Of a stretch of 64,000 nucleotides of DNA, positions 5,311 to 23,483 are shown in pieces. The stretch covers positions 10,405,347 to 10,469,346 of the forward strand of contig NC_086380.1 in assembly GCF_036588685.1 (NCBI RefSeq). Direction: 5' to 3'. Every line of letters begins with the position of its first letter. Positions within the stretch are counted from its first letter, which is position 1. This DNA comes from Mytilus trossulus. Taxonomy: Eukaryota. The notes beneath the pieces are model-generated. The model did no database searches and was not told the origin of the DNA. It saw only the letters and a list, made by a program, of their open reading frames with translations. Made by a program: the position numbers and the translations under genes.

Positions 5311-5442
5311 GTTAAAAGAAAAAAGCAATCAGCTAGAAAGTCAACTGGTGGTAAATGTCCTAGAATACAGGTTACTGGTAAACAAGCATCCACAGAAGCT
5401 TTGGACATGTTGGAAGATGACCCGTCTGCCTCAGTCACTCAG
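5311..5442 (+). CDS. Exon A of the H3-tail-mimic gene. It encodes [44 protein letters not shown], which resembles H3 residues 4-27. The start codon must lie in an upstream exon that was not identified.
   Basis: [22 protein letters not shown] against H3 [22 protein letters not shown] gives 15 of 22 identical. There is an AG acceptor at 5309-5310, an in-frame stop at 5296-5298, and the donor cag|gtggtt at 5443. Confidence 0.6.
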
Positions 5443-5780
5443 GTGGTTATTATACCAATTATTGTAAACCAAGTAATTTTCAGAGATACTTCATTTCACA
5501 CTAATTAAGCCCTTTCTATCACATTTTTGGTAATTTAGTTTTAGTTTTGTGATTTTCAAATTTACTGCATGTTGTTTTATAAGAAGTGATCTTAGTTTTA
5601 AATTTTCAAGACAATTTATATTTTCATTATTTTTCTACTTGTGGAATTTCAAATAGACATCTCTGGCAAAAATCAGTTGGTTTACAGTAATACACAGAAA
5701 ACAAGAATTGGTAATGGAAACAGGGAATGTGTCAAACAGACAACCAAACTAGAACTGAATGCCACCAATTGGTCTTCAAC

Positions 5781-5950
5781 ATAGGGATAAAATCAGTGGC
5801 GGATCCAGAACTTTTCCTAAAGGGGGGCCCGCTGACTGACTTAAGCTCCAGTCATGCTTCAGTGATATATATAATCAACCAAATTTTTCCCACATAAGGG
5901 GGGGGGGCAGGGCCCCCCCTGGATCTGCCTATGAAAATCCAGCACCCCCA
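5781..5950. mobile_element. MITE-like element of the GGCGGATCCAG ... CTGGATCTGCC family, with internal G10/C7 homopolymer tracts.
   Basis: Terminal inverted repeats cagtggcggatccagaa / ccccctggatctgcc. The same termini flank 25255-25410. Confidence 0.55.
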
Positions 5951-6469
5951 GTGAGGCTTCAGCTAACTCCTTAAAAAAGTGTATACTAGTTCAGCAAAAA
6001 TGGACATCACACTAAACTGCTAGAACATATAAATGAACCAAAATTTAAAAAGCATACAAGACTTATAAAGACCACAATTATGCCCTAAAATATGTTTTCT
6101 TTTTGTTCAGGTTGTTTTCTCTTTTGACACATTCACCATTTCCTTTCAGAATTTTATTATTTGATATGTTTACAGATTGATGGCTCATCAACTTCCTATT
6201 AAACGAATACTTTTATTTTCTAACACACATGCATATTATGGTCCTGTTTAAATATAGGCAATAGCAGTAAACCACTGGTCAATAAAATATTTGTTACAGC
6301 TTCCAGAAACTTGTTGTCTGTCTAAGTGAGAACATGATCTACTGTGTGAAATGCAGTCAGATTCATTGATTAATATAGAATTCTTAAATCAAGTGTATCA
6401 TTAATAAGCAATAGCTCACACTTTTTGGGAACAGTATATTAGTTTGTGGGGAACCACTAGTGATAGGTC

Positions 6470-19925: not shown

Positions 19926-20669
19926 AAATTATTGCCATTCATTATAAATAAATTTCTATCAAAACTAAGGCTCAAAGAATGTTTTATATTATTTATCTTG
20001 ACAATGACAACGTACACACATGTTGGCAGAGGAATACACAACGTCAGAGTGGGCGTGTCGCCATCAAAATTGATATCATTGAAAATAAAACTAATAATTT
20101 CAACCAATCAGAAGACAGTAAATACACAAAATTTATTTATTATTTAATGTAATGTAAAAGTAATATGTTAATAAAATAATAAGGAGATGGGGTATGATTG
20201 CCAATGACATTTTTTTTTCAGTAAGATATCATAGAAATTAACAAATATAAGTCACTGTATGGCCTTTAACAATTAGCAAAATCCTTACCACTAAGTCAGC
20301 TATAAGAGGCCCCAAAATGACAAATATAAAATGAGAGAACCAACGGCCTGCCTATGTACAAAATAATGAACAAAAACCAAATATGATATATATTTATCAA
20401 CAAGGACAAGCACTGAATTACAGGCTTTTGGCTTGGGACAGACACATGCAAAATGTGGCAGGGTTAAACTAGTTAGATGGTGCAAAACCCTCCCACTTAC
20501 CTGGGAAAGTCATTGAAAATGGTGCAACAGCACAAAACAACAACAAAGATACAAAACAATGAACAAACAACAAATTTAAACAGTAAAAGACAACACTGAA
20601 GCTATTTGAAACCTTACAGATTAACCACAACTTCCCTATGATTGTCAAGTCGTGCATAATATTTTTCAG

Positions 20670-20760
20670 CAAGCTGGATGACTTTGCAGGTGAATTTCCA
20701 AGTCTTATGCCACCATATGTTACAATTGACGAGGAAAAGTTAAAACAGTATGAGGCTATG
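20670..20760 (+). CDS. Exon E of the H3-tail-mimic gene (-KLDDFAGEFPSLMPPYVTIDEEKLKQYEAM).
   Basis: The acceptor atttttcag is at 20661-20669 and the donor GTAAGA at 20761. The phase is consistent with exons D and F. Confidence 0.5.
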
Positions 20761-21500
20761 GTAAGATAAATTTATTCTTAAACTTTATTCTGTTGAGTGA
20801 GCTTTATCAAAGTTTTTACCAGTCTTTTTTTTCCAGCATTTTGAAAAAGCTTAAGTGTTAGAAGAATTAAGCAATTTAGATTATATGGTGACCTGTATAT
20901 TAACGATGTGTGGGCATGATAAAAAAAAAATCCAATTCCAGAAATATGGCTGATGTATCACAAAATACTTGTAATTATTTAATTGTTTGATGAAAGATTA
21001 CAGGTTATTCATGAAAACATAATACAGGATTTAATTCTTTGTAAAACAGTGACCATTATTTGTAACATGCAAATACATGTCAACCCTAAGTTTCACTGGG
21101 GTATAACAATTTTAAATACCTTATCTGGAGTTACCCTGTTCTTCAATAATTAAAGTTTATTATAAGATAGGGGTATCTATTCTTTTGTATGAAATGTATG
21201 ATTTCGTAGTTTGGTATAAAAAAGAAGATGTGGTATGATTGCCAATGAGACAACTCTCCACAGTCACCTTATTGAGTCTTATTAAAAAAGTAATATTCAT
21301 TTGGATCTAAGGAGTTAAAATGGTGTCCAGTGTGACCTTTTCAGTTTAGTTTTTTTTTCAAATTGTTTGAAATGTGTCTCCTTTTAAAAAACAGGAAATA
21401 AAATCTATGATAATGAATTAAAGTTTTTCTTGAAAGTTGTCTGTATTTCCAAACCAATTGTAGATTAGTTTTTAGATAAATATCATTTTACTTTTTTCAG

Positions 21501-23483
21501 TTATTTAGCAGTGATTTACCTCCCTTGCCACCAGATGACAGTGATTTAGACAGCAACCTCTCTGTCAAAGATACTGATGGTAAATATTACACTGCAGTCG
21601 CTATAGACAGTAATGTTAATACAATAAACAAGTATTATGCTCCAGATTTTGACCCTTCATTTAAACCAAATGAGATGTCTAAAACAGTACCATCTCAGGT
21701 GGTGGATATTCAATTTGATCTCATTAATGCATCTACATCCATGATGTATGAAGCAGAAAAGATACCAAGTACTGAACCTACACTTCTGGACTACAATTCA
21801 TCTTCGCCAGGTAGCCTAACTGAACCAAATTACTTACCAAAACCTCTAAGCTATAGCCATGCTTTCTCTGGGTATCAACCAACATGGCCACATTATAGGC
21901 CAACTTCACCATTAATGGAGCCTACAAGTCTTGCTGTCCCAGATTTTCAACCAACATGGCGAAGTTATAATCCAAATAACTTACCACAATCTTTAAGCTC
22001 TACCCATGCTATCCCAGAGTATCAACAGACATTTCCAAGTTACAGTCCAACATTGCCAACTTACCAGCCAACAAGTCCCGCCTATTTTATCTCTCAAAAC
22101 TACAAAACAGTCAACAGATCTACTGAAAAATCATCTCATTTTCTTAAGAATCTGGATGGGAGTATGTCTCACTATGATCCTAAAACTATAGATATGAAAG
22201 AAACAGAGGTAAAATGTAGTATTAGAGGAAGGGGAGGAGGAAGTAGTGTTAGAGGAAGAGGCAAAGGAAGGGAAGGATGGAGAAGTGTGAGAGGAAGGAC
22301 AGAAGAAGGTAGAGATGGAAGAGGAGTAGAAAGCTGGAGAGGCCAGGAATACACTGGTCAAGGGCCAATAGGTCGTAGTGAGATTGGCTGGAATCAGAAA
22401 GATGATATAAGAGAAATAGAAAGAAAAGAAGAGCAAAGAAGTCATAGAGGATTTGATGAACATTTAGATAAGAGAGAGTCTGATAAATCTAAATCTAGGA
22501 GTATATCACCTACAAATAGAAGGCGTAAAGGATCAGGAAAACGATCGTCTCCTGACAGAAGACAAAGTAGATCTAGAAGAAAATCACCTTCCTTCAGAAG
22601 GGCTAGCAGGTCTAGTAGTAGATCAAGCTCTTGCAGGAGACAAAGTAGATCTAGAAGTAGATCTTACAGAAGACCCAGTAGATCTAGAAGTAGATCTTAC
22701 AGAAGACCAAGTAGATCTAGAAGTAGATCATCTCTCTTTAAAAGACATAGGAGATCTACAAGTAGATCGCCACCTTACAAAAGAAATAGTAGATCTAGGA
22801 GTAGATCAAGAAGTAACAGAAGAAATAACAGATCAAGAAGTAGATCACATCCCAACAGAAGAAGAAGCAGATCTAGAAAATCTTTGAGTTCAAGGAGAAG
22901 TTCTTCTAGATCAATATGTAGGGATAGGGATAGAGATAAAGGAGAGGGTGGCAACATCAGTACCAGTAGCCATGATAGGAAGCTTGCTAGATCTAGAAGT
23001 AGACAATCAAGTCATGTGATGTCCAGAAGGAGAAGATTTTCAGGGTCAAAAAGTAGGAGAAGGTCATCAAGCACAACCTCTTCAAGGTCAAGAAGGAGAA
23101 GTCCAAGATTAATTAGCAGAAGTTTATCAAGGTCAGGTCAAAGGTCACCAAAAAAGAAGTCTAGAAGGTCAGGAAACTTTAGTAAAGTGAAACAAGTGAC
23201 TAACAGAAGTATCTCAAGGTCAATATCCAGAACAAGACGATCCAGACAATCAAGATGGTCCAAACTTTCACCTTCAAGATCCAATGAAATATCGAGTTCA
23301 AGATTGGAGATGTTGGCAAAATCTGATTATGATGGCTTTATGAAAGCAAAGAGAGATTTTATTTTTTATGAAAATGCAAGTCCATCACCTTGTAGAGACA
23401 ACATATCAAAAAGTAGAACAGATGATGAGAGAAAACAGCAGGGATATGTATCTTCTGATCAAGACATAGCTGAAGGTAACTAA
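21501..23483 (+). CDS. Terminal exon F, 660 aa. It has an N-terminal P/Y-rich region with CTD-like heptads (YQPTWPH, YRPTSPL, YSPTLPT, YQPTSPA), then a roughly 350-aa RS/SR-rich domain (SRSRSRSYRRPSRSRSRS...). The stop TAA is at 23481-23483.
   Basis: The acceptor cttttttcag is at 21491-21500. The supplied ORF 21525..23483 extends in frame back to 21501. The compositional RS domain is obvious. AATAAA is at about 24119. Confidence 0.65.
   Translation, partial: LFSSDLPPLPPDDSDLDSNLSVKDTDGKYYTAVAIDSNVNTINKYYAPDFDPSFKPNEMSKTVPSQVVDIQFDLINASTSMMYEAEKIPSTEPTLLDYNSSSPGSLTEPNYLPKPLSYSHAFSGYQPTWPHYRPTSPLMEPTSLAVPDFQPTWRSYNPNNLPQSLSSTHAIPEYQQTFPSYSPTLPTYQPTSPAYFISQNYKTVNRSTEKSSHFLKNLDGSMSHYDPKTIDMKETEVKCSIRGRGGGSSVRGRGKGREGWRSVRGRTEEGRDGRGVESWRGQEYTGQGPIGRSEIGWNQKDDIREIERKEEQRSHRGFDEHLDKRESDKSKSRSISPTNRRRKGSGKRSSPDRRQSRSRRKSPSFRRASRSSSRSSSCRRQSRSRSRSYRRPSRSRSRSYRRPSRSRSRSSLFKRHRRSTSRSPPYKRNSRSRSRSRSNRRNNRSRSRSHPNRRRSRSRKSLSSRRSSSRSICRDRDRDKGEGGNISTSSHDRKLARSRSRQSSHVMSRRRRFSGSKSRRRSSSTTSSRSRRRSPRLISRSLSRSGQRSPKKKSRRSGNFSKVKQVTNRSISRSISRTRRSRQSRWSKLSPSRSNEISSSRLEMLAKSDYDGFMKAKRDFIFYENASPSPCRDNISKSRTDDERKQQGYVSSDQDIAEGN

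Follow-up and report, generated by a model that had tools for sequence, protein, structure and literature searches.

Histone H3-derived exons in the probable linker region of a PARP4-like locus in Mytilus

The 64,000-nucleotide stretch of the Mytilus trossulus genome analysed here (RefSeq assembly GCF_036588685.1, contig NC_086380.1, positions 10,405,347 to 10,469,346 of the forward strand; referred to as the window and numbered from its first letter) harbors several exons that resemble pieces of the N-terminal part of histone H3. These exons lie between a ubiquitin-derived module on one side and exons for a clathrin propeller and a MINT-like domain on the other. A preliminary description of this DNA had listed six exons and read them as a spliced gene carrying an H3 tail without a histone fold. 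Canonical H3 was compared by tblastn with the whole 64-kb window on both strands, and the six exons, e1 to e6, are the following:

5311-5442, + strand: e1, cassette exon of phase 0/0 derived from H3 residues 2-30 (tblastn and orthologues)
6821-6967, + strand: e2, cassette exon of phase 0/0; RYGPRKSAPIVED, a possible H3 K27-type motif, and the start of acidic, Ser-rich sequence
18248-18475, + strand: e3, poly-acidic exon, phase 0, with an alternative donor at 18433
18616-18725, + strand: e4, derived from H3 34-57, comprising the K36 region and the whole alpha-N helix
20670-20760, + strand: e5, phase 2 to 0; SKLDDFAGEFPSLMPPYVTIDEEKLKQYEAM
21501-23475, + strand: e6, largest exon, internal; disordered, with heptads like those of the carboxy-terminal domain (CTD) of RNA polymerase II, an RGG box and a long RS domain

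All six intervals reproduced the translations given for them, and the H3 tail segments described as almost verbatim were recovered by tblastn far above chance. Exon e1 matched H3 3-30 at 5317-5400 with 17 of 28 residues identical (E = 2e-5), or 14 of 18 over residues 3-20, and e4 matched H3 35-57 at 18628-18696 with 21 of 23 residues identical (E = 5e-10). The RKSAP match of e2 is weak when taken alone, its score being reached in 8 of 2,000 shuffles; the motif is kept in all four mussel genomes compared. At the level of sequence, the H3-like exons are thus fragments of a histone H3 gene (about residues 2-30 and 34-57) that now stand as in-frame exons.

The splice borders and phases also proved to be as claimed: an AG acceptor is present at all six exons and a GT donor at the ends of e1 to e5, and the phases chain into one open reading frame (ORF) of 2,691 nt with a TAA at 23481-23483. 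The M. galloprovincialis RefSeq and M. edulis models both splice at the alternative donor of e3 (KND/gttagt at 18433, phase 0). Like e1 and e2, two further exons (7538-7642 and 9981-10082) have symmetrical 0/0 phases, and the acidic exon is of phase 0 at both ends, which is the pattern expected for shuffled, alternatively spliced cassettes.

No H3 sequence beyond residue 57 was found by tblastn in the 64-kb window or in the three orthologous loci, so that no overlooked downstream exon with a histone fold came to light. The 150 residues after RRY showed no residual similarity to H3 57-136 (1,359 of 2,000 shuffles scored at least as high), and the conceptual product of e1 to e6 contains no Pfam histone domain. 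The earlier statement that both the alpha-N helix and the fold are missing is correct for the fold (alpha1-alpha3) but not for the helix: H3 residues 45-57 form the alpha-N helix in the nucleosome structure and e4 reaches H3 57, and the alpha-N sequence is therefore present. With the fold missing, an H3-like tail and spliced exons, the locus is neither a replication-dependent H3 gene nor cenH3, as had been argued, and an intron-containing variant of the H3.3 type was rejected because there is no fold exon. Neither an RRM nor any other Pfam domain was detected in the e1 to e6 product, in which an RS domain is present; a true SR protein was rejected since it lacks the RRM. The CTD-like heptads reported previously are real but degenerate, Pfam RNA_pol_Rpb1_R being sub-threshold in the orthologue and absent in the product of the window.

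An exhaustive HMMER search of cluster representatives returned one strong relative, a protein of 1,391 residues with 76% identity (E = 3e-201), namely, M. galloprovincialis XP_076109027.1, annotated as "uncharacterized protein LOC143077023." Its cluster-mate is M. edulis CAG2240014.1 (2,016 residues, labelled "CLTC"), and M. coruscus has three isoform models, CAC5400317-19, called "ubiquitin-like domain-containing protein." The corresponding locus stretches are designated L002 (M. galloprovincialis), L003 (M. edulis) and L004 (M. coruscus). The comparison with other mollusc genomes that had been proposed showed that the arrangement recurs: M. galloprovincialis and M. edulis hold e1 to e6 in the same order with 81-95% nucleotide identity, and the M. 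coruscus stretch examined, which ends before e4, holds e1 to e3 (the acidic exon down to 67%). Flanking intron is about 81% identical between species. Across the orthologous loci, the description of spliced coding exons with an H3 tail and no histone fold is thus supported. A word-indexed protein search with the 560-residue non-RS product gave only ordinary H3 matches at 4% coverage, and one with the 366 residues after RRY gave no match even though the 76%-identical orthologue is in the collection, its recall thus being limited. Exact look-ups of the last-exon ORF and of a Mytilus H3-containing protein showed neither on record.

Over the 1,975 nt of e6, 203 substitutions and 10 indels separate the window from M. 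galloprovincialis; all indels are multiples of 3 and no stop has arisen, whereas none of 3,000 simulations with 203 random substitutions stayed open, indicating that the reading frame of e6 is under selection. These data bear on the possibility that the H3-like exons have no coding role and represent decayed remnants of an H3 pseudogene or an artefact of assembly or annotation. H3 genes are highly repeated in mollusc genomes, where fragments are common, and the gene models for the locus disagree; nevertheless, we consider this explanation barely credible, given that four independent assemblies hold the same exons in the same order with AG/GT borders, that the indels are in frame without stops, and that the exons are more conserved (88-95% identity) than the flanking introns (about 81%). 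The H3 pseudogene was rejected on account of the kept frame and the shared exon order.

Upstream of e1, two exons encode the ubiquitin-derived module and what follows it:

450-635, + strand: first exon of the ubiquitin-derived domain within the window, starting in phase 1, with AG/GT borders; the preceding exons lie off the window's left edge
2305-4124, + strand: large exon with the end of the ubiquitin-like module, polyglutamine, an FG/GS-rich stretch and 23-residue repeats; phase-0 donor KYKE/gtagac

The module matches Pfam ubiquitin with an E value of 6e-23, is 71% identical to ubiquitin and ends in LRLRGG followed by Pro (450-635 plus 2305-2346). Since Gly-Pro junctions are poorly cleaved by deubiquitinases, it would behave as a non-removable ubiquitin fusion. 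Two repeat arrays were observed within the large exon. At 3559-4042, a 69-bp unit encoding NVAYGGLFGSEPVSVRAKGSPDT is present in seven head-to-tail copies that are 97% identical, and the single copy found in M. galloprovincialis points to a very recent in-frame expansion in the window. At 2439-3021, about 19 copies of a 27-bp repeat encode a Q-rich tract (QQPQMLQHG-type units); this repeat is also the source of long, spurious ORFs on the minus strand and in other reading frames.

The preliminary description had assumed a missing 5' exon with the ATG in front of e1. In the M. edulis model and one M. coruscus isoform, however, KYKE is spliced straight to e1 (KYKE/VGGRQKQTARKSCGCKFPR in M. coruscus), the upstream partner of e1 being the ubiquitin/polyglutamine exon of a PARP4-like gene. 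Two other M. coruscus isoform models skip e1 and join the KYKE exon to e2, and in M. galloprovincialis e1 and e2 lie within the span of the RefSeq model of the PARP4-like gene. At all three orthologous loci, the model that contains the ubiquitin exon or stands just before it, on the same strand, carries BRCT, PARP catalytic, VIT and VWA domains, which is the N-terminal architecture of PARP4; the 3' end of this model has its orthologue in window exons 450-635 and 2305-4124.

Downstream, the RS exon is not C-terminal, contrary to what had been proposed. Its strong donor, GAAG/gtaact, places the exon end at 23475, 7 nt before the stop, and the orthologous models XP_076109027.1 and CAG2240014.1 use it, reading SSDQDITED/TPRHILEK and then 557 more residues. 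Spliced reconstruction gave 13 more GT-AG exons after e6 in an unbroken frame, from 24949-24980 to 38320-38642:

24949-33069, + strand: nine exons encoding a paralogue of the clathrin heavy-chain N-terminal beta-propeller
24949-24980, 26888-26959, 27256-27454, 28378-28527, 29731-29849, + strand: exons 1-5 of this clathrin part
30529-30690, 31349-31456, 31768-31935, 32965-33069, + strand: exons 6-9 of this clathrin part
34551-34590, 35752-35840, 36626-36725, 38320-38642 (stop), + strand: four exons encoding a MINT-like C-terminal domain of about 165 residues

The propeller is complete, matching clathrin heavy chain 1 residues 11-339 in the PDB (E = 3e-86) as well as Pfam Clathrin_propel, and is about 40% identical to true clathrin heavy chains. 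No CHCR leg repeats (PF00637) were detected on the full orthologues; in the spliced reconstruction of the window the propeller passes directly to the MINT-like tail, and a protein search with the clathrin/MINT half returned true clathrin heavy chains only and no orthologue outside Mytilus. A true clathrin heavy chain, with which the product shares the complete seven-blade propeller, was rejected because the leg repeats are missing; moreover, an RS domain lies on one side of the propeller and the MINT-like domain on the other, and the name "CLTC" given to the M. edulis model misleads. The last 205-218 residues had a single PDB match, human PARP4 1581-1637 (FYNLTPDLCDMLGLSYNRIHDILKLQGLYSLG versus FWKLTPELGLILNLNTNGLHSFLKQKGIQSLG), at E = 0.018 with one sequence as the query and E = 0.004 with a profile of three, and the distance of the MINT-like domain to the C terminus equals that in human PARP4. 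MINT, the MVP-interaction domain, comprises residues 1562-1724 of human PARP4 and docks inside the vault (PMC12280208).

These flanks also bear on the gene as initially drawn, consisting of six exons, ending with the TAA at 23483, starting with an unseen ATG exon and presenting an H3-tail mimic on a compact SR-like scaffold. Were the last donor skipped, the ORF would indeed stop at 23483, and the six exons do chain in frame. Nonetheless, such a gene is very unlikely, since the donor lies 7 nt before the stop and leads, in both orthologous models, into 13 conserved in-frame exons, so that the RS exon splices onward to the clathrin propeller and the MINT-like C terminus, since e1 already has an upstream partner and since there is no RRM.

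With a PARP4-like half at one end and a MINT-like domain at the other, on the same strand, the H3 exons come to lie in between. From the gene models, the synteny and the MINT match, we infer that they are part of the linker of the mussel PARP4, or vault PARP. The locus shares with human PARP4 (vPARP, Q9UKK3) the upstream BRCT, PARP, VIT and VWA models, the C-terminal match and a large exon for a disordered, length-variable and fast-evolving segment that precedes the docking domain. The largest exon of vertebrate PARP4 codes for a disordered segment of variable length and sequence that immediately precedes the vault-docking domain; this segment is under positive selection in primates and bats, and contact with viral factors has been proposed for it (PMC4038475, PMC10450202). 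By analogy, the mussel linker would be the counterpart of this segment. It is, however, about 2,000 residues long rather than about 500, the locus is annotated as two or three genes, and its ubiquitin-, H3-, CTD-, RS- and clathrin-like modules are not described in the PARP4 literature that we found. The linker thus appears to be a mosaic resembling host proteins, some of them clearly captured: ubiquitin, the H3-tail copies, an acidic block, CTD-like heptads, RGG, RS and a clathrin propeller. We would class the locus as a variant PARP4 locus whose linker composition is without precedent.

The list of six exons was itself incomplete, two cassette exons having been overlooked:

7538-7642, + strand: optional cassette exon, phase 0/0, AG/GT borders, not H3-like
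9981-10082, + strand: cassette exon, phase 0/0, AG/GT borders; DIYKSPGFSFNTAGLSKGGSAPSITKPTSAILDL

The first is 88% identical to an exon of two of the three M. coruscus isoform models. The second is probably a degenerate second copy of H3 6-25; its M. galloprovincialis counterpart reads TAGKSTGGSAP, with 9 of 11 residues identical to H3, within the longer unit NTAGKSTGGSAPAITKPKSA. Units of this type are tandemly triplicated in M. galloprovincialis and present in two copies in M. edulis. In addition, M. edulis has an extra K27 exon (L003 about 12294-12548), of which M. coruscus has two copies. This exon comprises two tandem H3 N termini covering residues 1-36, ESELNEWL…TIMPARSGGKGSGKL[LV]ATKAARKS[AD]P..G[GD]V-ITTK.TRRK…[LR]TKAARKSAP.TGGV, the first of which still opens with Met-(Pro)-Ala-Arg. 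In M. coruscus, the K27 and acidic exons fall within a tandem duplication of about 5.7 kb (L004 45191-45348 versus 50916-51077). The first M. coruscus K27 copy is frameshifted, giving rise to the stop of the annotated isoforms, and an intact duplicate follows 5.7 kb further on.

The models differ as to whether all these exons belong to one gene. In the window, 23 GT-AG exons from 450 to 38642 assemble into an uninterrupted ORF of 2,172 codons, and a single M. edulis model extends from the ubiquitin exon to the end of MINT; we estimate a single PARP4 gene at the locus to be slightly the better bet. The annotations ("CLTC," "ubiquitin-like domain-containing," "uncharacterized") are inconsistent and probably split one PARP4 gene. 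As for the concern that the exons might not be spliced together, RefSeq does separate e1-e2 from e3-e6, which it places in two genes in M. galloprovincialis, whereas both groups belong to one model in M. edulis, a join with which the phases are compatible.

The alternative is a gene fission, which we regard as the less probable arrangement, though one to be taken seriously. Gene A would then be PARP4 without MINT, with a C-terminal extension made of ubiquitin, polyglutamine, e1, e2 and the KSPGF (H3 6-25-like) exon and ending by read-through after 10082. Gene B would encode a vault-targeted, PARP-less protein that starts near the acidic exon and comprises the acidic block, H3 34-57, CTD-like heptads, RGG, RS, the clathrin propeller and MINT. 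The RefSeq annotation of M. galloprovincialis draws this very division: gene A ends at L002:8379 after three KSPGF repeats, and gene B (XP_076109027.1) opens with MTGDTHQTGC followed by the acidic exon. None of the M. coruscus models reaches the acidic exon either. The M. coruscus stop, however, lies in the frameshifted K27 copy that is followed by an intact one. Furthermore, the homologue of the MTGDTHQTGC first exon, at 11108-11137 of the window, has its donor changed from GT to TT, the alternative being out of phase, so that the RefSeq start is not conserved, which speaks against this exon as the conserved start of a gene. The intervening exons are all of phase 0/0, and MINT is otherwise known as the C terminus of PARP4 itself (PMC10450202).

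The strength of selection along the locus was estimated as the ratio of nonsynonymous to synonymous substitution rates (dN/dS) between the window and M. galloprovincialis, with the following values:

Non-RS part of e6: 0.95
e1-e3: 0.72-0.77
e4: 0.43
Clathrin-like part: 0.62
MINT-like tail: 0.31, the strongest constraint anywhere in the gene
Gene-B exons overall (e3 to MINT): 0.68 (P = 0.012 for <1)

In the same comparison, amino acid differences affect 2 of 41 H3-like codons but 114 of the 511 other codons of the linker (P = 0.003, Fisher test). The KQ[ST]ARKS and RKSAP cores and 21-22 of the 23 alpha-N residues are kept in all genomes examined for them. Elsewhere in the H3-like exons, identities have been lost: the e1 core of the window and that of M. 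coruscus are each identical to H3 at 14 of 20 positions, but not at the same ones, and in e4 a different H3 residue is lost per lineage (K37A in the window, R42T in the M. edulis group). These losses at different sites suggest that the ancestor was closer to H3 and that the copies are slowly decaying around conserved cores.

The same data can be read as neutral exonised debris, the H3, ubiquitin and clathrin pieces being accidental captures of which only the frame is selected, and the H3-likeness being functionless and decaying. This explanation concerns function rather than anatomy, and it overlaps both with a PARP4 linker and with gene fission. The dN/dS of 0.95 in the non-RS part of e6 and of about 0.7-0.8 in e1-e3 is in line with it, as are the independent loss of H3 identities in different lineages, the variable presence and copy number of the K27 exon and repeat units between species and the introns full of transposable elements. 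On the other hand, the H3-like codons are more conserved than the linker around them, and the motif cores and the alpha-N residues survive. Likewise, at 17 of the 21 e4 codons that specify the same residue, the H3 gene of a Haliotis histone cluster differs synonymously, a comparison that dates no capture because it is cross-genus. Overall, we rate neutral debris as a strong contender that falls somewhat short of an even chance.

If the H3 pieces in the putative PARP4 linker do have a role, selection would still act chiefly to preserve an open frame, allowing the conserved C-terminal domain to be translated. In addition, the H3 pieces would act as exposed linear motifs for H3-directed enzymes, readers, importins and chaperones, and such factors would be tethered to a PARP/vault protein or diverted from chromatin. 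Histone mimicry, perhaps with a decoy or substrate role, is plausible, judging from the KQ[ST]ARKS, RKSAP, K36 and I51/R52/Y54 positions, which are present in the exons at the motif level. The e1 core matches the H3 segment recognised by HP1 chromodomains, by methyltransferases of the G9a/SUV39 type and by Aurora-type kinases. PARP1/HPF1 acts on H3 S10 and S28, and one may speculate by analogy that the KS-containing motifs could serve as ADP-ribose acceptors if the PARP half is attached. A free H3 40-59 peptide uses I51, R52 and Y54 to bind sNASP, with a dissociation constant of about 5 uM (PMC9122598), and e4 has all three residues.

A more far-reaching version, which we consider unlikely, would regard the linker as an array of integrated decoys, with a PARP catalytic module on one side and a vault-docking domain on the other. 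Ubiquitin, the H3 tail and alpha-N helix, the RNA polymerase II CTD, RS domains and the clathrin propeller are hubs that pathogen effectors would be expected to bind, cleave or modify. ADP-ribosylation, or sequestration in the vault, would then serve to sense or neutralise the engagement of such a decoy by a pathogen factor. By analogy, the linker would be an invertebrate counterpart of the positively selected disordered exon of primate PARP4, conceptually similar to the integrated decoys of plant NLRs.

Comparison with other systems sets the H3 pieces apart in several respects. With canonical H3, H3.3 and cenH3, they share residues 3-20 and 34-57 at 78-91% identity, but alpha1-alpha3 are missing, the pieces are split by introns and by an acidic insertion of 62-76 residues and the host protein has at least 2,000 residues. 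Known histone mimics such as the ARSK of influenza NS1, the ARKS of SARS-CoV-2 ORF8 and the automethylation motifs of G9a/SETDB1 likewise have an ARKS-type motif in a disordered non-histone region; they are motifs of 4-6 residues that are generally viewed as convergent (PMC6028506). The mussel pieces are instead H3 by descent, amounting to about 45 residues in several copies and including the K36 region and alpha-N, a similarity much more extensive than in any histone mimic in the literature that we found. The host protein CODANIN-1 is reported to carry an H3-mimic helix that sequesters the histone chaperone ASF1 (PMC11880193); the predicted mussel helix differs in being the N-terminal alpha-N, the NASP-binding region. 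We found no literature linking Mytilus, histone H3 and PARP4, or describing such an arrangement. The view that no such family had been described is therefore right for the papers found but has to be amended for the databases, where models exist publicly under uninformative or misleading names.

Several points weigh against placing the H3 pieces in a functional PARP4 linker. Besides the RefSeq division into two genes, no spliced e3/e4 or e4/e5 junctions turned up in two scans of metagenome contigs, and a Logan contig from the cluster of the orthologue was genomic, not complementary DNA. The PARP catalytic half falls beyond the window, and only precomputed Pfam labels on neighbouring gene models attest to it. 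The MINT-like alignment covers 57 residues with E values of 0.004-0.018, and a single-sequence AlphaFold model of this tail reached a pLDDT (predicted local distance difference test) of 52, with a Foldseek search against the PDB returning noise only, so that the MINT assignment relies on sequence and context. Sequence constraint is weak (dN/dS of 0.68 overall and 0.4-0.95 across the region), and 7 of the 20 positions of the e1 core differ between the window and M. coruscus. The K27 exon, together with about 3.3-3.6 kb around it, is absent from the window and from the M. galloprovincialis assembly (deletion sites: window 10857-11037, L003 10532-14120, L002 8503-9213), the differing breakpoints in the two indicating that it was lost independently or is presence/absence-variable. 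Finally, vaults and PARP4 are mainly cytoplasmic, while most H3 writers and readers are nuclear. Weighing all of this, we favour with moderate confidence the overall reading in which the H3 pieces sit in a giant, disordered and fast-evolving linker of the mussel PARP4 locus, where they would operate as outlined above.

The surroundings of these exons contain a number of repetitive elements. A hairpin at 4577-4717, in the intron before e1, has 61-nt arms that are 90% complementary and a 19-nt loop and looks like a miniature inverted-repeat transposable element; related direct copies lie at 4430-4477 and 4594-4641. Tandem repeats of 89 and 107 bp at 7629-7901 abut the optional exon 7538-7642, and 7957-8946 is the tail ORF of a non-LTR (long terminal repeat) retrotransposon with a weak zf-RVT match (E = 0.001). 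The intron before the acidic exon holds, at about 11534-17736, a retroelement of about 6.2 kb in the same orientation as the gene (ORFs 12329-14281, 14016-16400, 14390-16618 and 16694-17317; RVT_1 with E = 1e-18, plus RNase H), which is absent from the orthologous position in M. edulis. A degraded retrotransposon lies 3' of the gene at 55247-58103, with a weak gag-like match, a reverse transcriptase (E = 5e-13) and an RNase H (E = 1e-6), and no host gene was recognised between 38.7 and 64 kb of the window.

If the locus is expressed as modelled, an endogenous mussel protein would show most of the H3 N terminus outside the nucleosome, displaying K4, K9/S10, K14, a K27-type motif, K36, Y41 and alpha-N, all physically joined to a vault-docking domain and perhaps also to the catalytic domain of a PARP. 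The locus also bears on the question of what the hypervariable disordered exon of vertebrate PARP4 binds: as the mussel linker is apparently built of recognisable host modules, candidate ligands can be guessed. Even if the H3 pieces are neutral passengers, the locus would still be a clear example of exon capture and cassette turnover in a frame-constrained disordered linker.

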